Shown: one piece after another, positions 1 through 34,420 of the stretch | Numbering within the stretch: position 1 is the first letter of the stretch | How the letters are laid out: each line of letters starts with the position of its first letter | Program-made: the position numbers and the translations under genes | Origin: a virus | Taxonomy: Duplodnaviria > Heunggongvirae > Uroviricota > Caudoviricetes | Strand: one strand, 5' to 3' | Length of the DNA stretch: 35,486 bases | Virus record (IMG/VR): IMGVR_UViG_2724679238_000015 | Span: 1-35,486 of that record | The notes under the pieces: generated by a model | Databases searched by the model: none | What the model saw: only the letters and a program-made list of their open reading frames with translations | What the model was told of the DNA's origin: nothing

Positions 1-1002
1 TTACCCTCTATTGTCAAAAGGGTTCAATTCAACTGCAGCCTCTAAATGACCTGGAGCAAAATGCGCATAACGCATAGTCATTTTTATATCGCTATGCCCC
101 AGTATTTTTTGCAACACAAGAATATTTCCTCCCCGCATCATAAAATGACTGGCAAACGTGTGACGTAGCACATGAGTTAATTGCCCATCAGGAAGCTCGA
201 TCTTCGCTCTCTTAATTGCAGCGTCAAAAGCCTCATAACATGGTGAAAATAACGCTCCTCGTTTTTTAGGAAGCATAGCCTGCAATTGAGGTGAAATCGG
301 TACAGTGCGGTTCTTCTTTCCTTTAGTTTTAACAAATGTGATTCGACCGGGCAGCACTTGAGATTGCTTTAATCCTTCAGCTTCACTCCACCGAGCACCA
401 GTCGCAAGCCCAATACGGACAACAACCCCCAAATCTTTATTCCGTGACTCATCACACGCAATCAGAAGGCGTTCAATCTCATCTACATACAGAAACGCCA
501 ATTCCTTTTCTTCCTCACGAAACTTGCGAATGCCAGTCAGGGGGTTTTCACCAGACCACTCCCCAAGGCGCTTCAGTTCGGCAAAAACAGCATGTAGATA
601 TGACTGCTCGCGATTAACGGTTGCTTCACTAAGTTTTTTCTTCCCCTTGGGATTCCATTCTCCTGATAACCTCCTTTCCCGATAAGTAGCAAACATATTT
701 TTGTCAAACTGAGAAGCAAATGGATCTCCCAGCCTAGAACAAATAGACTCAAGTTTGACTTTGCGCTCTGCACCAGAGGACAAGGTTTTACCGTACATCT
801 CAAACCAACGAGCAACCAACTCAGAAAGACGAGGACCAGAACCATCTTGAAACTCGTCTCCAACTCTACTATTCATTAAACGGCGCTCATAAGAGAGCGC
901 CTCACTTTTTGTCGCAAACTGTTTACGAATACGTTTTCCCGATGCCCCGTAAGGATAACATTCGCAAAGCCATTTACCTGATGGAATCTTACGAACCGAC
1001 AT
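1..1002 (-). CDS. int: tyrosine integrase, phage 186/P2 family
   Basis: 333 aa. N-terminus MSVRKIPSGKW...GKRIRKQFATKSEA and C-terminus LTHVLRHTFASHFMMRGGNILVLQKILGHSDIKMTMRYAHFAP closely match my memory of phage 186 Int (catalytic R..H..R..Y region). Its stop codon is the first 3 bases of the window. Confidence 0.9.
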   Translation of the reverse strand: MSVRKIPSGKWLCECYPYGASGKRIRKQFATKSEALSYERRLMNSRVGDEFQDGSGPRLSELVARWFEMYGKTLSSGAERKVKLESICSRLGDPFASQFDKNMFATYRERRLSGEWNPKGKKKLSEATVNREQSYLHAVFAELKRLGEWSGENPLTGIRKFREEEKELAFLYVDEIERLLIACDESRNKDLGVVVRIGLATGARWSEAEGLKQSQVLPGRITFVKTKGKKNRTVPISPQLQAMLPKKRGALFSPCYEAFDAAIKRAKIELPDGQLTHVLRHTFASHFMMRGGNILVLQKILGHSDIKMTMRYAHFAPGHLEAAVELNPFDNRG

Positions 1003-1007
1003 TTTAG

Positions 1008-1355
1008 TTACTTATCACATAAATCAAATGCAGCCTTAGTGACATCTCCCAGATTCTTTTTTAACCCTGGGGCGGCATCATTATCCAGCCAAAATGGATT
1101 ATTGTTATCTAACGGTAACGCACCAAATGTTTTACCTTTTATTCGAGCCAAACCTGTAAGCGCATATAACTTATTATCGTCAAAATTCATCACATAAGGA
1201 TTACCATCTAGACACTGTAACTGAACCTCATCAGTATTAAATGGCCATACCCCATTGAAACTCTCACGTTCAATATTTTTAAAAGGCATTGCGACGGCAG
1301 AAAAAGAAAACATAGATAAAAAAGTAACTAATAGTTGAACCTTTTTTACTTTCAT
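1008..1355 (-). CDS. small secreted protein of unknown function (signal peptide), cargo in the repressor-int operon
   Basis: 115 aa. N-terminal MKVKKVQLLVTFLSMFSFSAVA looks like a Sec signal peptide. GAGGT RBS. Only 5 bp from the int start, so probably co-transcribed. Confidence 0.6.
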   Translation of the reverse strand: MKVKKVQLLVTFLSMFSFSAVAMPFKNIERESFNGVWPFNTDEVQLQCLDGNPYVMNFDDNKLYALTGLARIKGKTFGALPLDNNNPFWLDNDAAPGLKKNLGDVTKAAFDLCDK

Positions 1356-1384
1356 ACCATTACCTCAATTTAGCTCAAGTAAGA

Positions 1385-2035
1385 TTACAAATTAAAAAAC
1401 ATCCTAGAAATGGCACCACCTACCAAACCCCCTACGCAGATAAAGAATATTATTTCTTTTGGATAAAGTCGGATTAATTCTGAAGCACGAAGTCGGACTT
1501 CTGGTAAGGTCGAATTCTCTGTGTTGCTTGATACCGATTGTTGCTCTAACCACGACAATGCAGACTGCAACTGAGAACGAGTAAGATCGTTTAAACGTCC
1601 TGTACCGAAATTGATATGGCAATACCGCAGAAGTTTTTGTCGAAGTCCACAGTCTTCACTGTTACGTAGTAATAAACTTACAAGAGCCTTACAGGCATCA
1701 TGATCTTTACATCGCTCAAGCATTGCATGCAGAAAACTCTCCGCTGTTTTATATTGATTTACTGTCATATCATCAATACCAGCTACACCAATCTCCGCAT
1801 GTACTTTTTGCCAAATAATAAACGCTTCAGTATTGCTAGCTTCTGCAATAGCAGCAACCAAGCTATTTAGCTCCTTACGCTGAGCCTTAAGCAAAGGGCG
1901 ATCGTCATCATCATTATTCGAAGGGATTGCGATATTGACGGTATGAGAACCATCATATCGCCCTATCTGAATATTCTTTTCGTGAAAATCACGCCCAGCA
2001 ACGCGATTGTTTGAACCGTTTGAGTTGACGGCCAT
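1385..2035 (-). CDS. C-terminally membrane-anchored protein of unknown function, cargo in the repressor-int operon
   Basis: 216 aa. GGGAGG RBS 5 nt upstream. Single hydrophobic segment at the extreme C-terminus (IIFFICVGGLVGGAISRMFF). N-terminus carries the motif GSNNRVAGRDFHEKN also present at the C-terminus of the upstream HTH protein. Confidence 0.6.
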   Translation of the reverse strand: MAVNSNGSNNRVAGRDFHEKNIQIGRYDGSHTVNIAIPSNNDDDDRPLLKAQRKELNSLVAAIAEASNTEAFIIWQKVHAEIGVAGIDDMTVNQYKTAESFLHAMLERCKDHDACKALVSLLLRNSEDCGLRQKLLRYCHINFGTGRLNDLTRSQLQSALSWLEQQSVSSNTENSTLPEVRLRASELIRLYPKEIIFFICVGGLVGGAISRMFFNL

Positions 2036-2050
2036 GTCACCTCCCTACTA

Positions 2051-2455
2051 TCACCTACCCTTAGTTTCGTTATAGTCACGCCCAGCGATACGGTTATTAC
2101 CGCCAGAAATATTTAACTCACGTCCTGATGGCTGAGTTTCCTTTTCACTGGCCGCACCTTTTAAAGCCCCGATCACCGCGTTTTTCACATCTAACGAAGC
2201 TGCTCGAAAGCGAGTAATCAACTCCTGCTCATCATCGTTATAAGTTTCAGGTGAGTGAATTCCCAACACAACATACTGAACATCAAGGCCAAAACGAGAC
2301 AGCGCTGCCAAATACGCAGCATCAGGAAAGCTATCTCCTTTCTCATATCTAAGCTGAGTTAGCTTTTTGACTCCACCAATGTCGCTCATAGCAACTTGAC
2401 TAAGTCCCAATCTTTCCCTTTCCTCACGCAACCTCTGACCAATATCATTTTTCAT
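2051..2455 (-). CDS. XRE-family helix-turn-helix repressor, candidate immunity repressor
   Basis: 134 aa. N-terminal QRLREERERLGLSQVAMSDIGGVKKLTQLRYEKG is a typical XRE HTH. Divergent from the early operon across a 75-bp control region, the position of cI in 186-like phages. Confidence 0.7.
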   Translation of the reverse strand: MKNDIGQRLREERERLGLSQVAMSDIGGVKKLTQLRYEKGDSFPDAAYLAALSRFGLDVQYVVLGIHSPETYNDDEQELITRFRAASLDVKNAVIGALKGAASEKETQPSGRELNISGGNNRIAGRDYNETKGR

Positions 2456-2470
2456 ACAAAAACCTTGACA

Positions 2471-2488
2471 GGTATCTTTTTTGATACC
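2471..2488. promoter_or_regulatory. 18-bp palindrome GGTATC-N6-GATACC in the divergent control region; candidate operator next to a TTGACA -35-like hexamer (2465..2470)
   Basis: Perfect 6-bp inverted arms with a TTTTTT spacer, between the repressor start (2455) and the first early gene (2531). Seen directly in the sequence; function inferred. Confidence 0.3.
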
Positions 2489-2530
2489 AAAATGATTTCA
2501 CGAGCTATTAGATGATCACAATATATCACT

Positions 2531-2737
2531 ATGAAACAAGTTCTTCACGATACCAGATCACGCATTCCGCGTAACACCGCCACAGGTCCAAGACTGGCAC
2601 TTCGGCTGTCCCTCGAGGAGCGAGCCGTCATTGATGAAATGGCAGCTAAAGAACAACGCTCATCCTCTAACATGGCGCGCATGATCTTCCTTCGCGGCCT
2701 AGAGCTAACCCAGAAAGAACAAAACAAATCTTCCTGA
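2531..2737 (+). CDS. small ribbon-helix-helix-like DNA-binding protein, first gene of the early operon (Cro/Apl-like role inferred)
   Basis: 68 aa. RLALRLSLEERAVIDEMAAKEQRSSSNMARMIFLRG fits the beta-strand/helix pattern of Arc/CopG/MetJ-type proteins. No clear RBS, so the start is uncertain. Confidence 0.5.
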   Translation: MKQVLHDTRSRIPRNTATGPRLALRLSLEERAVIDEMAAKEQRSSSNMARMIFLRGLELTQKEQNKSS

Positions 2738-2753
2738 TCAGGAGGCTAATGGG

Positions 2754-2957
2754 ATGTCAGGTATAACCATCAATATCAATGTGAATGCCCCCTATGTATC
2801 CCTGCAGAAATATGCAGAGATAACAGGTATCCCTCTTAATACATGCAAAAAGATGTTGGCTGACGGTCGAATTATTATCCGACCCAAACGCGCCAAAATG
2901 GAAAAGCCTGAAGTAAACCTTGTGGCGATGTTAAAAGACGCTTTGGCTAACAGCTAA
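2754..2957 (+). CDS. small HTH protein, candidate excisionase/Cox-like regulator
   Basis: 67 aa. GGAGG RBS 8 nt upstream. YVSLQKYAEITGIPLNTCKKMLADGRI resembles a winged-helix excisionase-type DNA-binding motif. Confidence 0.5.
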   Translation: MSGITININVNAPYVSLQKYAEITGIPLNTCKKMLADGRIIIRPKRAKMEKPEVNLVAMLKDALANS

Positions 2958-2978
2958 AACAATGAACAGAGCATCATC

Positions 2979-3329
2979 ATGAAAAAAAACACTAATATTC
3001 CATACTCCAAATTTCGTAATGGCGTAGAACGCCACGCTAACCGTTTCGCTATCAGTACATCACGTAGCAACACTCGCTACAGCCTGAGCGAAACACACGC
3101 TACACCTGATGGCCATCCCGTAAAACAAATTGGTGAACACACCTGGCTGATTGAGAAAGCTGGAATCGTGGTTCACAGATGCCAACGCAACCCATTTACC
3201 GGAAACCGCATTTTTGCTCTGAGCAACGGCGACAATCAGTTTGGACAGGATTTCACGTTGTACGAAGCTCTGCGCACGGTTGATCGTCTGCTACGCGGAC
3301 AGAATTTCATTAAACAGGCTGATTTATAA
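2979..3329 (+). CDS. hypothetical early protein
   Basis: 116-aa ORF in the early operon; no recognisable motif. Confidence 0.45.
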   Translation: MKKNTNIPYSKFRNGVERHANRFAISTSRSNTRYSLSETHATPDGHPVKQIGEHTWLIEKAGIVVHRCQRNPFTGNRIFALSNGDNQFGQDFTLYEALRTVDRLLRGQNFIKQADL

Positions 3330-5026: not shown

Positions 5027-7822
5027 GTGGCAACGGAGTACATCAGAAACTGGCAACAACCACGCCATGCAGTCGGTCGCGAGGGAACGGGGGAGCCTGT
5101 CCGCCCCTCCCTTCTTTCTTCCTGGCTGGATGCCTACCGGGCAGAGAACGAGCGCCGCCAGGAAATGGCTGATGCGGCGTTCTCCGCCACGCCGCTGGGC
5201 AATCTGATTAATAAAAACCTGGACGCACAGGAAAAACAGGACAAAGCCATCACACTGGCAAGAGAAGCCAGAAAACAGGCGTGTGGCGCGGTGGATGAAG
5301 CAATTGCCGCACTGCGCCTGCTGCCGTCCTATCTGCGAGATCCGCTTATCCGCCATCTCTCTTTCCTGCGCAAAAAACAGGAATCCGATCGTCAGAAAGG
5401 CAAAAAGAGCTGGCAGGCTGAACGCTACGCGCGCGGAACCCTGCGCAAAATATTCGAACGTCTGGAGCGCACCGACAGACGCTGGCTGACACCGGGTTAT
5501 CGCTCCCTTGCCGGGCGTGAACGCCTGGATGATTTACTTTACCTGCCGCAGCTCAACAAACACCAGATACAGACGCTGGCCGTCATGACAGCGGCGATGT
5601 TCAGCAGCACCTTCGAAAAACTCTGCGATGACTTTGGCGCGACCGATGGCGAGCTGACCATGGATATAACGCTGAAGGCGTATCAGATGCTGGCCCGCAT
5701 GGCGTTACATCTGCACACAGTGCCGCCGCATTATGACGCACTGACAACAGACAAAGACCGGAAGAACGAACCGGACACGGAGCTGCTGCCGGGTGCAATC
5801 CTCCGCCTGACCTGTGCGGACTGGTGGAAACGCAAATTGTGGCTTTTACGTTGCGAATGGAGAGAGGAACAACTCCGCGCTGCCTGTCTGGTTTCCAGAA
5901 AAACATCCCCCTATCTGAGTCAGGACGCATTAAGTGAATTTCGCGCACAGCGCGAGAAAACACGCGATTTCCTGAAAAGTTTCATGCTGGAAAATGAAGA
6001 CGGGTTCACGATTGATCTTGAGACGGTGTATTACGCGGGAGTAAGTAACCCGGTCCACCGTAAGGCAGAAATGATGGCCACCATGAAGGGGCTGGAACTT
6101 CTGGCCGAAGCCCGTGGCGACAAAGCGGTATTTCTGACCGTTACCTGCCCGTCAAAATATCACGCAACAACGGAGAACGGTCATCCGAATCCCAAATGGA
6201 ACGGCGCCACCATGCGCGATTCCAGCGATTACCTGGTTAACACTTTTTTTAAGGCAGTCCGCAAAAAACTGAACCGCGACGACCTGCGCTGGTATGGTAT
6301 CCGCACGGTGGAGCCACACCATGACGGCACCGTGCACTGGCACATGATGGTCTTTGCACATCCTGAAGAAATCGACAGCATCGTGGACATCACCCGTGAT
6401 ATTGCCATTCGCGAAGACCGCCACGAGCTGGGCAATGACATAACTCCGCGCTTTAAGGCAGAGTACGTCGACGGTTCGAAAGGTACGCCGACCAGCTACA
6501 TCGCCACCTACATCGGAAAGAACCTGGACAGCCGCGCCGTGGATGGCATTGACCCGAAAACAGGCAAGCCACGCGTTGATCACGAAACCGGAAAATCAAT
6601 GACCGAGAGCGTGGAACGCGCCATCGGCTGGGCGCGCCTTCACCGCGTCCGCCAGTTCCAGTTCTTTGGTATCCCCTCCCGTCAGGTATGGCGTGAACTC
6701 CGCCGCCTTGCCAGTCAGATGGCCCGCACCCCGGAAGGTCCACAACGTCTGGAAAATGACGCAATGGATGCGGTACTCGCTGCCGCTGATGCCGGGTGTT
6801 TTGCCACCTACATTGAGAAACAGGGGGGCGTACTTGTTCCACGCAAGGATTACCTGATTCGCACCGCCTACGACCTCGCAGAAGAGCTGAACGATTACGG
6901 CGAGCAAAGCGTACAGATTTACGGGATCTGGTCGCCACAAATCGGGGAATCTTCCCGCGTGTGCACGCACCCGGATAACTGGAAGCTGGTAAGACGTAAA
7001 CCGGAAGCGGAAGACAGCGCCCGCGAAAATGGTTTTGACCTTCAGGGCGGCCCTGCCGCCCCTTGGACTCGTGGCAATAACTGTCCCCGTGTACAGGAAA
7101 CAGGCAACAGCGGGACAGAACTGTCGGAAGAGCAACCAACACCGTGGCCGCAGATCCCTGACGGCGTTGATGTGGATGAATGGATGCGCTCACTGAAACG
7201 GCACGAACGTCGGGCGCTGATGCGTTCGCTTCGTAACAAACAGGCAAAAAACAACAGTGATGAAATGCAGAGCTGGACACAGAGCCGCAAACAGCCGCGG
7301 TCTTTGCCTGATAACCACGAGTTACTCGCTAAAGAATGGCGGGAGTCTGCCGAATCTCTCGGCCTGCATATCGGTGAACAACAGATGCTGCGCCTGTTAC
7401 GGGGCGGCAGTCTGTACGTTGACGGCAGCATCATTGCACCGCAGGGATTTGAAATTGTACGCAAACCGGATACCCGCCCGGACAGCCGAATCACGCAGCT
7501 CTGGCAGCGCCTGAGCCGTAATCACGGCGTAAGCAGCACGGAGATCCGTCATAACCCGATCGCCAGCTATCTGGAACAGCTGGGGGCATCAGACCCCGAA
7601 GCCGCCGTACGCCTGGCATCCACACTTCAGCAGGACCAGAACACCATGAAAACACCCGTTACCGTGCTTTCTGACATGCTGCGTGCCATCCGTGACGCAG
7701 AGCACGCACAGAGAATCAGTGAAACCACTGAACGCGCCCGCCGCAAAGCAGACCTGCTGCGGTGGCCTGACCAGCGGAAACAAAAAACAGACAGAAACGG
7801 GATTCACAAATCCCGTAAATGA
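5027..7822 (+). CDS. A: replication initiation protein, P2 gpA-like rolling-circle endonuclease
   Basis: 931 aa, GTG start. Contains the conserved metal-binding block VEPHHDGTVHWHMMVFAH and YIATYIGKN tyrosine region of the P2 A family. The C-terminal ~250 aa is a low-complexity R/Q/E-rich extension. Confidence 0.85.
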   Translation: MATEYIRNWQQPRHAVGREGTGEPVRPSLLSSWLDAYRAENERRQEMADAAFSATPLGNLINKNLDAQEKQDKAITLAREARKQACGAVDEAIAALRLLPSYLRDPLIRHLSFLRKKQESDRQKGKKSWQAERYARGTLRKIFERLERTDRRWLTPGYRSLAGRERLDDLLYLPQLNKHQIQTLAVMTAAMFSSTFEKLCDDFGATDGELTMDITLKAYQMLARMALHLHTVPPHYDALTTDKDRKNEPDTELLPGAILRLTCADWWKRKLWLLRCEWREEQLRAACLVSRKTSPYLSQDALSEFRAQREKTRDFLKSFMLENEDGFTIDLETVYYAGVSNPVHRKAEMMATMKGLELLAEARGDKAVFLTVTCPSKYHATTENGHPNPKWNGATMRDSSDYLVNTFFKAVRKKLNRDDLRWYGIRTVEPHHDGTVHWHMMVFAHPEEIDSIVDITRDIAIREDRHELGNDITPRFKAEYVDGSKGTPTSYIATYIGKNLDSRAVDGIDPKTGKPRVDHETGKSMTESVERAIGWARLHRVRQFQFFGIPSRQVWRELRRLASQMARTPEGPQRLENDAMDAVLAAADAGCFATYIEKQGGVLVPRKDYLIRTAYDLAEELNDYGEQSVQIYGIWSPQIGESSRVCTHPDNWKLVRRKPEAEDSARENGFDLQGGPAAPWTRGNNCPRVQETGNSGTELSEEQPTPWPQIPDGVDVDEWMRSLKRHERRALMRSLRNKQAKNNSDEMQSWTQSRKQPRSLPDNHELLAKEWRESAESLGLHIGEQQMLRLLRGGSLYVDGSIIAPQGFEIVRKPDTRPDSRITQLWQRLSRNHGVSSTEIRHNPIASYLEQLGASDPEAAVRLASTLQQDQNTMKTPVTVLSDMLRAIRDAEHAQRISETTERARRKADLLRWPDQRKQKTDRNGIHKSRK

Positions 7823-7888
7823 GCAAAAAACGCGCCGCGATATATGAAACGCGCACAAAACAGGCAAAAGCGGGATTTCAGAATCCCG
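7798..7888. promoter_or_regulatory. two 18-bp palindromes CGGGATT-N4-AATCCCG (7798..7815 and 7871..7888) flanking the parM-like promoter; candidate parC centromere/operator
   Basis: Both copies have perfect 7-bp arms and are followed by TAAA. Centres are 73 bp apart, about 7 helical turns. The second overlaps a plausible -35/-10 (TTCAGA at 7877..7882, then ATTAAT about 17 bp downstream). Confidence 0.4.
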
Positions 7889-7923
7889 TAAACGATTAAT
7901 TAATCAACATAAGGAAAATCGAC

Positions 7924-8883
7924 ATGAAAATTTGCATCGACGACGGCTCCACCAACATCAAGCTGGCATGGACTGAGAACGGCGAACGCCGCAACGCCAT
8001 CAGCCCGAACAGCTTCAAGTCGGAATGGTCTGCGCCGTTCGGTGGCACGCAGCCCGCGAACTACATGCTTGATGGCGTGCGCTATGGTTTTGATCCGGTC
8101 AGCGATCGCTTTGTCCAGACGACCGACACGCAATACCAGTACAGCGATGTGAATGTCATTGCCATTCATCACGCGCTGGTCAAATCAGGTATCACACCAC
8201 AGGAAGTGGACGTGGTTGTCACTCTGCCACTGAGCGAGTATTTCGATACAAACGCACAGCCGGACATGGCCAACATCAACCGCAAAAAAGCGAATGTCCT
8301 GCGCCCTGTGGAGTACCAGAACGGTGAAGCATTCACTATCCGCAACGTGCGGGTTATGCCTGAATCCATTCCGGCTGGCTTTAAGGCACTGGCTGACATG
8401 AGTCCGTTTGAATCCCTGCTGATTGTGGATTTAGGCGGAACAACGCTGGATGTGGCAAAGGTTCAGGGGCAACTGGCAGGCATCAGCCAGGTGTTTTGCG
8501 ATCCACACGTAGGCGTTTCCCTGATGGCTGATGCCGTGCTGTCGGTGCTGGCCACTAACGGTATGCGTACCAGTCACCACATCGCCAATACCATTATTGA
8601 GCACCGTCACGATGAAGCCTGGCTACGCCAGCACATTCACAATGACGCGCATTACAACAGCCTGATAGCGGTTATTCGTGAAAAGGAGGAGACACTGAAA
8701 CAACGCGTGATCCGCGCACTCGCGGGCTTTTCGGGTTACGGGCGGGTGCTGGTTGTCGGTGGAGGAGCGGAGATTGTGGCACCCGCAGTCCGTGAAGTCT
8801 ATGGAGTCAATGCGAATTTCATCACAGACGGGGTGCCACAGTTTGCTCTGGTTAACGGTCTGTACGCTATGGATAAGGAGTAA
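7924..8883 (+). CDS. parM: ParM/StbA-family actin-like segregation ATPase
   Basis: 319 aa. MKICIDDGSTNIKL..ISPNSFK..YSDVNVIAIHHALVKSGITPQEVDVVVTLPLSEY matches plasmid R1 ParM as I recall it (MLVFIDDGSTNIKLQW...ISPNSFK...QYSDVNVVAVHHALLTSG). AAGGA RBS. Confidence 0.8.
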   Translation: MKICIDDGSTNIKLAWTENGERRNAISPNSFKSEWSAPFGGTQPANYMLDGVRYGFDPVSDRFVQTTDTQYQYSDVNVIAIHHALVKSGITPQEVDVVVTLPLSEYFDTNAQPDMANINRKKANVLRPVEYQNGEAFTIRNVRVMPESIPAGFKALADMSPFESLLIVDLGGTTLDVAKVQGQLAGISQVFCDPHVGVSLMADAVLSVLATNGMRTSHHIANTIIEHRHDEAWLRQHIHNDAHYNSLIAVIREKEETLKQRVIRALAGFSGYGRVLVVGGGAEIVAPAVREVYGVNANFITDGVPQFALVNGLYAMDKE

Positions 8884-8889
8884 CCCTCC

Positions 8890-9201
8890 ATGGCGACATT
8901 AACCAGAAGAATAAGTTTCTATCTGAAGCCAGCCGCCGTCAAGAACGAAGGCAAAGCATGCGCCTGGCTGGACAGCCTTACACCAGAAGCCCGCAAAAGC
9001 GGCCAACGCGTGGCTTTTCTGCCCGGGCTGGCACTTCTGAAAATGAATCCGGCAGAGGCTTACCGACTGGCTGCATGGGCTGATGATGAGGCGTTATCAG
9101 TGACACAAACCAGGGCAGAACGCCACATGTTACAGCCAGCGCCCACCGCACAGATAACCAGTCAGCTAGCCGGAAATATCCGGGCGTTATTTCCCGAATA
9201 A
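8890..9201 (+). CDS. parR: ParR-like centromere-binding protein
   Basis: 103 aa, AAGGAG RBS, directly after parM. RISFYLKP, WLDSLTPEARKSGQRVAFLPGLAL and NIRALFPE resemble R1 ParR (IAFKLNP, TLDSIPQGERSRLNRAALTAGLAL, LRSLFPKE). Confidence 0.65.
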   Translation: MATLTRRISFYLKPAAVKNEGKACAWLDSLTPEARKSGQRVAFLPGLALLKMNPAEAYRLAAWADDEALSVTQTRAERHMLQPAPTAQITSQLAGNIRALFPE

Positions 9202-9264
9202 CACAACATCAGGGCGCATCCGCCCTGATGACTTTAATCCGGGAACATAAACAAGAGGGACACA

Positions 9265-9606
9265 ATGCAACACATTGACAGAGAAAAAGCGCAGCGACTG
9301 ATTGAGCGGATGGAAGCGCTGGCGAAAGAAGAAAATGTCAACATCCAAAAAATAGCAGAATGTGGCCAGATAGTTCTTCGTCGTGAAAAAGACATCAAGC
9401 AACTGATGTCTGGCGAAACCAGCAAAACACGGATTCCAGGCGAGAAAACGATTTATTGTAGCTTCTGCAATAAATCCCAGTACGAAGTCACAAAGGTGAT
9501 TGCCGGACCGTCTGTTTACATCTGCAATGAGTGCGTGGATTTGTGCAATGAAATTATCAGGAGAGAAGCGACTGACCATGAAGAAGCGCGGAGATGCAAC
9601 GATTAA
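9265..9606 (+). CDS. small protein with a C-terminal ClpX-type C4 zinc-finger domain
   Basis: 113 aa. [38 protein letters not shown] is near-identical in pattern to the ClpX N-terminal zinc-binding domain ([34 protein letters not shown]). Preceded by a charged, probably helical N-terminal half; no AAA+ domain. Confidence 0.7.
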
Positions 9607-10697: not shown

Positions 10698-11744
10698 TCA
10701 GGCTGTGGGCTGGGTGTCTAACAGTGCGTAAGGGTTAAAGCGGATCACCTCTTCGCCCAGCCAGTCATTGATGTGCTTCATGGCCTCCATGACGGGCATC
10801 AGCTCGTTAATTGCGTAAACCCGCGCGGCCTTCTCCACATCACCAAACGCACTTTTTTCACCCGGCATCGCCCCCATCAGTTGCGGCGGAACGCGGTGCG
10901 CAGCCAGCACATCATCACGGGATGCCGCCTTAACATTCATGAACTCATCCTTTGCGGTGATCTGCTGGAACGGCAAAATTTGCACCCCCTCTTTGCCCCC
11001 GTTGGGCGCATGAATGAGCACGTTTTTAAACGCACCACCACCACGTGCCCCCTGTAGCGTTTCTTTCAGGGAGTCCATGCTTTCGCGGTTTACCTGCGCT
11101 GCACCGATGTAGATGATGCACCCGGCGTGGGATCCGTTGTCGTAATACAGTTTTCTGAACATGTCCGCCGAATGAGACAGGCTGGCCGAGAGTAATGCGC
11201 CGAGATATTCCGGCATGCCGTAGATTTCCTGGTTAATGTCAGGATTCATCAGGTGGCACACTTTGCCAGGGCGAAACTGAAACGCGTCCTTACCATCCTG
11301 CACATACCACCATGATTCAAGATCGCTTCCGCGTCGCATGTATTTCGCCAGGGCGTGCCGTAATTTAAGCGGTTCGCCGAGCATATTGCTTCGAAGCTCA
11401 AGGAATGCGTTACCGAACACAAACCAGTCCAGCGCCAGCGCCGAGAAATCCTGCCGGGAAAGCAGCGGGTGCGGAATATAGCAGCCGAGCAATACATTGC
11501 GCTTAAAGTAAAGCGCAGACTGATGCCAGGACGTTTGCCGGGCAGCTCTTGCCAGACCGTACCAGTCCACCGGGGTTTCATACCATCGCCCGTTATCGGC
11601 ACAGTACATATTGTCCAGTAAATCATGCCCGGTCAGGCGGTAAGGGCCGTCAAATGTGAATGCACTGAGCGATGATTCTTTCCTGAGCGCATCAGCGAGA
11701 TCAATGCGTGAACTCATGCGCACTTTTTTATTTTTTCTGCTCAT
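10698..11744 (-). CDS. Q: capsid portal protein (P2 gpQ homolog)
   Basis: 348 aa; size, position downstream of the terminase ATPase gene and overall similarity to P2 Q. ATG overlaps the P stop (ATGA). Confidence 0.85.
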   Translation of the reverse strand: MSRKNKKVRMSSRIDLADALRKESSLSAFTFDGPYRLTGHDLLDNMYCADNGRWYETPVDWYGLARAARQTSWHQSALYFKRNVLLGCYIPHPLLSRQDFSALALDWFVFGNAFLELRSNMLGEPLKLRHALAKYMRRGSDLESWWYVQDGKDAFQFRPGKVCHLMNPDINQEIYGMPEYLGALLSASLSHSADMFRKLYYDNGSHAGCIIYIGAAQVNRESMDSLKETLQGARGGGAFKNVLIHAPNGGKEGVQILPFQQITAKDEFMNVKAASRDDVLAAHRVPPQLMGAMPGEKSAFGDVEKAARVYAINELMPVMEAMKHINDWLGEEVIRFNPYALLDTQPTA

Positions 11745-34149: not shown

Positions 34150-34362
34150 ATGGCTGGAGGGAATACCCGAAGGCCAGATGTGGAAAGGCCCCGGAAAACA
34201 TTTCTGTTTAACCGAGGCCCTGACCATCTAACCTTAGCAAGTGATAGGTTAGCGCCTCCCCAAAAAAGGAGCAAGCGCTATGTCGCAAAAATCGCTTATG
34301 GCCATCACGTTCTGCGTGACGGTAATCCTCATCATCTGGATGCTGCACGGTTCGCTGTGTGA
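34150..34362 (+). CDS. mok-like overlapping reading frame of the hok locus (tentative)
   Basis: 70-aa ORF in another frame overlapping the hok start, as mok does in hok/sok loci. Called by position only. Confidence 0.3.
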   Translation: MAGGNTRRPDVERPRKTFLFNRGPDHLTLASDRLAPPQKRSKRYVAKIAYGHHVLRDGNPHHLDAARFAV

Positions 34363-34420
34363 AATACGGATGAGCTTCTGGGGAGCGGAGTTTGCGGCGT
34401 TCTTACAGTGTAAGCAGTAA
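34280..34420 (+). CDS. hok: Hok/Gef-family small membrane toxin (type I toxin-antitoxin)
   Basis: 46 aa: MSQKSLMAITFCVTVILIIWMLHGSLCEIRMSFWGAEFAAFLQCKQ. N-terminal TM followed by the SLCEIR...E.AAF signature of the Hok/Gef family. Followed by a GC-rich fold-back hairpin. Confidence 0.65.
   Translation: MSQKSLMAITFCVTVILIIWMLHGSLCEIRMSFWGAEFAAFLQCKQ

Follow-up and report, generated by a model that had tools for sequence, protein, structure and literature searches.

Partition systems are usually seen as plasmid equipment, and those described on elements that integrate into the chromosome are points of comparison for the locus analysed here. The srpMRC system of the SXT/R391 integrative and conjugative elements (ICEs) stabilises the excised form, which replicates by a rolling-circle mechanism with an HUH nuclease (PMC4489591, Carraro et al. 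2015). The AlpC/AlpA/alpS system of the prophage CGP3 is needed for efficient replication of the phage DNA (PMC4446434, PMC5539076). Pfeifer et al. (2021) placed phage P88 among putative phage-plasmids because of its genes for partition and for plasmid-like replication and suggested episomal and integrative states (PMC7969092). Here, we describe a parM-parR cassette with two upstream palindromes in a P88-like prophage of Escherichia coli. The DNA is IMG/VR record IMGVR_UViG_2724679238_000015, positions 1 to 35,486, and this whole stretch of 35,486 nucleotides is called the window. The cassette is real but already known, being a standard annotated feature of the common P88 group, and the idea of a dual lifestyle is in print. 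With moderate confidence, we interpret it as a working type II (ParMRC) segregation module, core to P88-like phages, that would act on the circular extrachromosomal form of the phage genome.

The parM-parR pair and the candidate parC

The features of the locus are as follows.

5027..7822, plus strand: gene A, rolling-circle replication initiator, 931 aa (Pfam Phage_GPA, 1.3e-129)
7781..7822: candidate parC unit 1, consisting of an A-rich tract, the palindrome CGGGATTCACAAATCCCG (7798-7815) and TAAATGA, overlapping the last gene A codons
7854..7895: candidate parC unit 2, consisting of an A-rich tract, the palindrome CGGGATTTCAGAATCCCG (7871-7888), 36-53 nt upstream of the parM ATG, and TAAACGA
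7877..7904, plus strand: weak candidate parM promoter found by eye, TTCAGA (7877-7882), a 16-nt spacer and ATTAAT (7899-7904), 4/6 and 4/6 consensus positions
7911-7915: Shine-Dalgarno sequence AAGGA ahead of parM
7924..8883, plus strand: parM, actin-like segregation ATPase, 319 aa (Pfam, PDB, alignment)
8890..9201, plus strand: parR, centromere-binding adaptor of the StbB/ParR family, 103 aa (Pfam, PHROG, alignment)
9207..9230: GC-rich hairpin with a 10-bp stem directly after parR, terminator-like score on the minus strand

By sequence, the open reading frame (ORF) at 7924-8883 is a full-length ParM with intact nucleotide-binding motifs. It matches Pfam StbA_N (7.2e-82), the ParM C-terminal domain (2.8e-66), PHROG 691 ('partition protein') and the sequences of the R1 ParM crystal structures (PDB 1mwk/1mwm; 1.8e-92), and its full-length identity to the R1-type ParM of an IncFII plasmid is 47%. 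The segments IDDGSTNIK, PESIPAG, DLGGTTLD and GGGAE are kept in the alignment with the R1 type, and the coordinates and motifs that the initial annotation quoted for a ParM are all present. The protein is intact in 82 of 83 close relatives, and the ratio of nonsynonymous to synonymous substitution rates (dN/dS) is 0.07. Thus, parM is under strong purifying selection.

The parR gene starts 6 nt past the parM stop, and its product is, judged by its profile matches, an adaptor of the ParR/StbB family. It matches Pfam Plasmid_stab_B (PF10784, StbB/ParR) at 3.1e-23, above the cutoff of 25 bits for that family, as well as PHROG 2515, and BLASTP aligns it with R1-type ParR at 32% identity over 56 aa (E 1e-7). 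The profile searches that had been proposed as a check have returned significant matches to both the ParM and ParR families. A multiple alignment of the window ParR, R1-type ParR and four distant phage ParRs agrees with the earlier remark that the protein resembles ParR at both ends. The N-terminal segment, TRRISFYLKP in the window and RRTIAFKLNP in R1, is kept across the alignment, and R6, F10, L12 and P14 near the N-terminus and N96 and L100 near the C-terminus are invariant, the R1 type included. The motif [KR]xN[AI]xxLFPx, found in all phage ParRs, aligns with the R1 ParR C-terminus KKNAMKLIN. The window protein ends in NIRALFPE, and a C-terminal helix is predicted at residues 89-100 (AlphaFold2, AF2, at low confidence). 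The corresponding peptide of R1 ParR is the part that binds ParM (PDB 4A62). The idea that the phage ParR is without a ParM-binding tail was dropped after the multiple alignment. The linker between the conserved ends varies, the P88 type having the shortest one. In 81 of 83 close relatives ParR is intact, and its dN/dS is 0.41.

Two ParR alleles, about 50% identical to each other, circulate in the P88-like prophages of E. coli. The other allele (locus L002, 3691-4005) occurs in about half of the matching genomes, with unchanged upstream palindromes. Similarity between the alleles breaks about 55 nt into parR, and the N-terminal 17 residues and the C-terminal LFPE are identical. Because the alleles share these N-terminal residues and the same upstream region, a test for covariation between allele and palindrome is uninformative.

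In the whole window there are exactly two matches to the pattern CGGGATT-N4-AATCCCG (7798-7815 and 7871-7888), directly upstream of parM and 73 bp apart from start to start. Shuffled sequences give an expectation of 0.15 matches, and 1 of 100 shuffles reached two. The first copy lies inside the last codons of gene A (5027..7822), as had been noted before. The palindromes form the cores of two 42-nt direct repeats (7781-7822 and 7854-7895, 79% identical), each with the A-rich tract on the left and TAAA(T/C)GA on the right of the palindrome. Most of the variation among 84 close relatives falls in the central 4 nt (CACA, CACG, TCAG, TAAA and others), and the arms GGGATT/AATCC(C/T)G are largely preserved. 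Kept arms around a variable centre are the pattern expected of a site bound by a dimer.

The position of the sites is kept over longer distances. They lie at -126/-53 from the parM ATG in the window (spacing 73 bp), at -129/-56 in a Hafnia phage (TGGGATTGAGGAAACCCA and CGGGTTCATTAAATCCCA, spacing 73 bp) and at -132/-60 in a Plesiomonas phage (CGGGACAACAAAAACCCG and CGGGACAACACTAACCCA, spacing 72 bp), and the latter two loci also keep the AT-rich TTAATCAA box of the candidate promoter region. The Serratia and Enterobacter phages are arranged differently, with two roughly 20-nt inverted arms starting with GGGAAC and a third half-site. The GGGA core is conserved together with the ParR N-terminal segment, which is nearly invariant across these phages. 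The conserved arms and the spacing of 72-73 bp in relatives support the proposal of a candidate centromere. ParR may bind the two palindromes as parC, and unit 2 probably also acts as an operator. The terminator scan predicts no plus-strand terminator between gene A and parM, and the hairpin at 9207-9230 is likely either to end transcription of parMR or to block late transcription that comes from the right. Taken with the profile, PDB-sequence and comparative evidence, the arrangement supports the parC-parM-parR architecture of a type II locus that had been proposed.

Age, distribution and genomic setting of the cassette

Relatives of ParM with 53-63% identity are found in Hafnia, Plesiomonas, Serratia and Enterobacter, all in P2-like prophages. 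The order in these prophages is gene A, a ParM gene on the same strand, a PF10784 ParR gene, variable cargo and the portal-terminase genes, so that the location of the pair, after gene A and before the portal gene, recurs in five enterobacterial lineages. Around ParMs of 52% identity or less, neither a gene A nor a portal gene lies within 5 kb. In a neighbour-joining tree, built without bootstrap, all ParMs with a phage context form one clade apart from non-phage ParMs and R1 ParM. ParM is better conserved across these lineages (53-63% identity) than gene A (31-53%). The phage clade, the fixed position, and the intactness and selection of the genes together indicate that the cassette is an old, selected core module of the lineage and not a recent cargo. 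Since the cargo behind parR differs among the relatives, the variable hotspot starts after parR.

In the window, this slot holds a gene for a stand-alone ClpX-type C4 zinc-finger protein, which could be a ClpX mimic or adaptor. The same slot is occupied by a HicAB toxin-antitoxin system in Serratia and by a KAP NTPase in Enterobacter (loci L007, 7450-8084, and L008, 7411-8757). The Plesiomonas shigelloides relative (WEKF01000002.1) lies on a contig of 32,167 bp, about the size of a phage genome, with the integrase near one end; the contig might represent an excised or episomal form or result from assembly breakage at the att repeats.

P88, PhiR44_2, Citrobacter phage Shae_phiSM and others share about 94% identity with the cassette region (7700-9300), which matches 1304 of 5426 complete E. 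coli genomes, about a quarter, with up to 3-5 P88-like matches within one genome. The RefSeq records listed name the genes 'plasmid segregation protein ParM' and 'plasmid partitioning/stability family protein'. The novelty implied by the initial annotation is thus not upheld: annotations of the cassette exist for P88 and for more than 1300 E. coli genomes, and the dual-state idea has been published (PMC7969092), which is the sole relevant remark on ParMR in P88-like or P2-like phages that we found in the searchable literature. Of the 384 deposited phage records that contain a homologue of gene A, this ParM is present in 14 P88-like ones only; phages P2, Wphi, PSP3 and L-413C are without it. 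The best database match of ParR is 92% identical, and the window allele has no identical database entry. When the phage ParR was compared by tblastn with 72,556 plasmids, only phage-bearing records matched and no genuine plasmid did.

One of these records, NZ_CP148288.1, is a complete P88-like genome, submitted as a circular 'plasmid' of 34,461 bp from E. coli Z1323PEC0009, to which PLSDB assigns no replicon type. A 6-kb stretch of it that runs from gene A to parR matches an integrated prophage of the sister strain Z1323HEC0067 at 100% identity, and none of the full-length matches in the E. coli collection came from the assembly of Z1323PEC0009 itself. Six further 'plasmid' records contain the cassette, and these are large replicons or a linear fragment riddled with insertion sequences (ISs). 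The latter, a 26.7-kb match in Shigella boydii, is a piece of phage DNA and was set aside as uninformative. The contig NZ_JBQPOM010000071.1, labelled Vagococcus sp. WN89Y, carries an E. coli-type phage region (ParM 95% and portal 99.7% identical) and is probably enterobacterial contamination of the assembly.

The element in the window is a P88-like (Xuanwuvirus, Peduoviridae) P2-like prophage of E. coli with P2-type gene order. Positions 3027-34540 align with 2089-35187 of Escherichia phage P88 at about 88-95% identity. The right end of the window is E. coli chromosome at 99.2% identity, with ogr and hok/gef followed by tRNA-Leu/Cys/Gly-pgsA-uvrC. The prophage is therefore integrated beside tRNA-Leu and, with an integrase at 1..1002, is the integrated P2-like prophage that had been described. 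The cassette stands between gene A and the minus-strand portal gene, parMR is co-oriented with gene A, and the portal-terminase operon is transcribed toward the cassette region. The surrounding features are the following.

1..1002: integrase, at the left window end
1008-1355, minus strand: DUF2511 protein
1385-2035, minus strand: 216-aa ORF of no clear family
2051-2455, minus strand: helix-turn-helix repressor
9265-9606, plus strand: stand-alone ClpX C4 zinc-finger protein, directly after parR (Pfam zf-C4_ClpX, 9e-18; PHROG 6797)
10698..11744, minus strand: portal gene
about 34280-34420 (by alignment to locus L109, 1982-2122): Hok/Gef family toxin gene after ogr, near the right prophage end

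Window positions 1-3000, comprising the immunity region and left arm, have no match to P88, and the DUF2511 protein and the 216-aa ORF between integrase and repressor are possible cargo expressed in the lysogen. In the gene A protein, the Phage_GPA domain is confined to residues 179-503 of 931, and P2 gpA can be aligned to residues 77-744 only (31.5% identity). The long C-terminal part, whose last codons hold palindrome 1, has no assigned function. Rfam searches gave no family matching the cassette region or the whole window and no Sok or antisense RNA at threshold anywhere in the window. Among the early-region ORFs that were scanned, the P2-type gene A is the sole replication protein found; the full window was not scanned with plasmid Rep profiles.

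Proposed action on circular phage DNA and alternative explanations

The homology of both proteins, their intactness, the purifying selection, the gene position and the conserved repeat architecture are direct observations, from which we infer ParR DNA binding, filament-driven movement and the timing of action. ParR dimers would bind the two phased 18-bp palindromes to form a partition complex and, once bound, would repress the weak parM promoter that overlaps palindrome 2. The C-terminal helix of ParR would capture the ends of ATP-ParM filaments, and filament growth between two circles that bear parC would drive the circles apart. Given that virtually every complete genome has the prophage in its integrated form, the substrate must be a circular extrachromosomal phage genome. 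This circle, replicated by the rolling-circle initiator gene A encoded just upstream of the cassette, would exist between infection and integration and once more following excision. During these phases, partition would supply phage circles to both daughter cells, resulting in more lysogenisation and less loss.

Several observations weigh against this interpretation. In complete E. coli genomes, 1450 of 1452 cassette places are chromosomal, and a further count gave 1766 of 1768. A repressed, unintegrated P2-type genome would not replicate, so that partition alone cannot maintain the genome and any benefit has to arise in short extrachromosomal phases. The window shows no more than two candidate ParR sites, and the parC of R1 has ten 11-bp iterons. 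A consensus scan upstream of parM detected no sigma-70 promoter; of the earlier suggestion that the second palindrome overlaps a plausible parM promoter, what stands is the weak candidate found by eye, which is below the threshold of the scan and whose -35 element would fall within palindrome 2. The PDB sequence search with ParR gave no match, so that the ribbon-helix-helix (RHH) fold is not confirmed. The structure prediction proposed as a check gave, for ParR, the C-terminal helix at low confidence but no usable fold: the AF2 monomer has a mean predicted local distance difference test (pLDDT) score of 52.5 and was not used for a fold search. RHH proteins are obligate dimers, and a poor monomer model is unsurprising if ParR acts as a dimer like known ParR proteins. 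The conserved TRRISFYLKP followed by predicted helices (AF2, low confidence) is compatible with an RHH fold. Finally, the searchable literature yielded no experiment on a P88-type cassette and no description of its palindromes.

The main rival is a lytic role, in which ParM filaments would move or position replicating circles through ParR and parC, for instance apart from one another or to sites where DNA is replicated and packaged, and thereby raise replication efficiency and burst size. P2 replicates into monomeric circles, which are the packaging substrate, and parMR follows gene A directly on the same strand without an intervening plus-strand terminator. Since this arrangement is found in all five lineages, co-expression with the early replication operon is plausible. 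An integrated prophage, CGP3, offers a precedent with experimental support in its AlpAC system (PMC4446434, PMC5539076). However, both proteins are closely related to bona fide plasmid partition proteins (47% identity to R1-type ParM), and we consider a lytic role possible but considerably less probable than the segregation of circles between daughter cells. The two roles are not mutually exclusive. A different objection concerns the DNA sites: the palindromes may not be a centromere but RNA hairpins, for example barriers to leftward late transcription entering gene A, or sites of another phage regulator, with the ParR sites elsewhere. Both palindromes score as terminator-like on the minus strand, because A-rich tracts lie upstream of them on the plus strand, and the portal-terminase operon is transcribed toward the region. 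However, a stronger hairpin, at 9207-9230, already stands between the late genes and parR, and no Rfam family matches. In 37 of 84 relatives the arm variant GGGACT at site 1 breaks the stem with no compensating change in the opposite arm, which argues against selection for an RNA hairpin. The Plesiomonas sites still agree as direct repeats and in their spacing, but the stem that they can form has only 4 bp, around a loop of 10 nt. The sites also keep their position and phasing with respect to the parM ATG, which is what an operator or centromere would be expected to do. We therefore regard a non-centromeric role of the palindromes as unlikely.

It is less probable still that the phage is a true phage-plasmid, whose normal prophage state can be a stable episome maintained by ParMRC, with integration as an alternative. 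The listing of P88 among putative phage-plasmids (PMC7969092), the P2-like phage KS14 with its plasmid prophage (PMC3091744), the complete circular genome of 34.5 kb in NZ_CP148288.1 and the phage-sized Plesiomonas contig with an integrase near one end speak for it. The episomal phase suggested in the initial annotation is compatible with this one phage-sized circular record but has to face the almost exclusively chromosomal places in E. coli. Moreover, the window prophage itself is integrated beside tRNA-Leu and not maintained outside the chromosome, the circular record has no plasmid-type replicon, the RepB and ParA of KS14 are absent from the early-region ORFs scanned in this phage, and spontaneous induction can yield a single circular record. 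The remaining six 'plasmid' records, as described above, are of another kind. We give least credence to a weapon or shield, in which the prophage ParR and ParM or a chromosomal parC would disturb the partition of related plasmids or superinfecting phages. The interval between gene A and the portal gene is where the P2 map carries the exclusion genes tin and old, and what follows parR is variable cargo, in relatives for example HicAB and a KAP NTPase. However, parMR is conserved and monophyletic in the clade rather than variable cargo, and at E <= 0.01 neither ParM and ParR nor the three proteins encoded downstream have a match in PADLOC. ParR is only 32% identical to the R1 type over 56 residues and tblastn found no genuine plasmid, which makes a cross-reaction with the systems of plasmids unlikely. 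In addition, strain UTI89 carries the prophage cassette together with pUTI89, a stable plasmid stabilised by ParM (PMC5381267), and the several P88-like matches per genome coexist.

We are nearly evenly divided, leaning slightly to doubt, on the proposition that P88-like prophages run a working actin-like machine on circles in a selectable extrachromosomal phase, be it establishment, a post-excision state or a carrier state, or else use it to position DNA lytically. If true, an integrating tailed phage of Enterobacteria would for the first time have been shown to possess a functional type II partition system, and its centromere of two palindromes would be unusually minimal. The strict conservation of partition genes in an integrating lineage, under strong purifying selection, argues that the extrachromosomal phases are long or risky enough to require active segregation. 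The host is E. coli, P88 is inducible and can be engineered, and the R1 system provides all the assays, so that the benefit of such a machine to an integrating P2-like phage is easy to test.

Comparison with known partition systems

The nearest relatives are the cassettes of P88 and other Xuanwuvirus phages, which have the same order of gene A, parM, parR, ClpX zinc-finger gene and portal gene, about 94% identical DNA and an about 97% identical ParM. The palindromes are equal apart from a few substitutions: palindrome 1 of P88 is GGGACT...AATCCC, whereas it is perfect in the window. The immunity region also differs. ParMRC of R1/NR1 (StbA-StbB) shares the order of cis site, parM and parR, and its ParR belongs to the same Pfam family with matching end motifs. 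In contrast to R1/NR1, the window cassette resides on an integrating phage and not on a plasmid, and the phage ParMs form a separate clade. The phage has two 18-bp palindromes 73 bp apart instead of the ten 11-bp iterons of R1, and its ParR is 103 aa long, compared with 116 aa for the R1 type, part of the linker being absent.

Among phages with a plasmid lifestyle, the P1-like phage-plasmid D6 has an StbA-type ParM homologue that is 46.9% identical to the window ParM, and the P2-like KS14 combines a P2-like virion module with a plasmid prophage state, RepB and ParA (PMC3091744). However, both are maintained as plasmids with plasmid-type replication, whereas the window phage is integrated and has an integrase. 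AlpC/AlpA/alpS of Corynebacterium glutamicum CGP3 is likewise an actin-like ATPase with a DNA-binding adaptor and cis sites in an integrated prophage. The actin-like family is distant, the host Gram-positive and the phage of an unrelated type.

By analogy, srpMRC is the closest functional precedent for the P88-type cassette, and the case of a temperate phage would parallel the finding made on SXT/R391. Both are type II-like partition systems on a normally integrated element, with repeats upstream of the ParM gene that are bound by the adaptor in srpMRC (PMC4489591) and may be so in the phage. However, SrpM and SrpR are distant from R1 ParM and ParR, and in SrpR no ParR domain can be recognised. 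The element that carries srpMRC is an ICE and not a phage, and it is for srpMRC that the function has been demonstrated experimentally.

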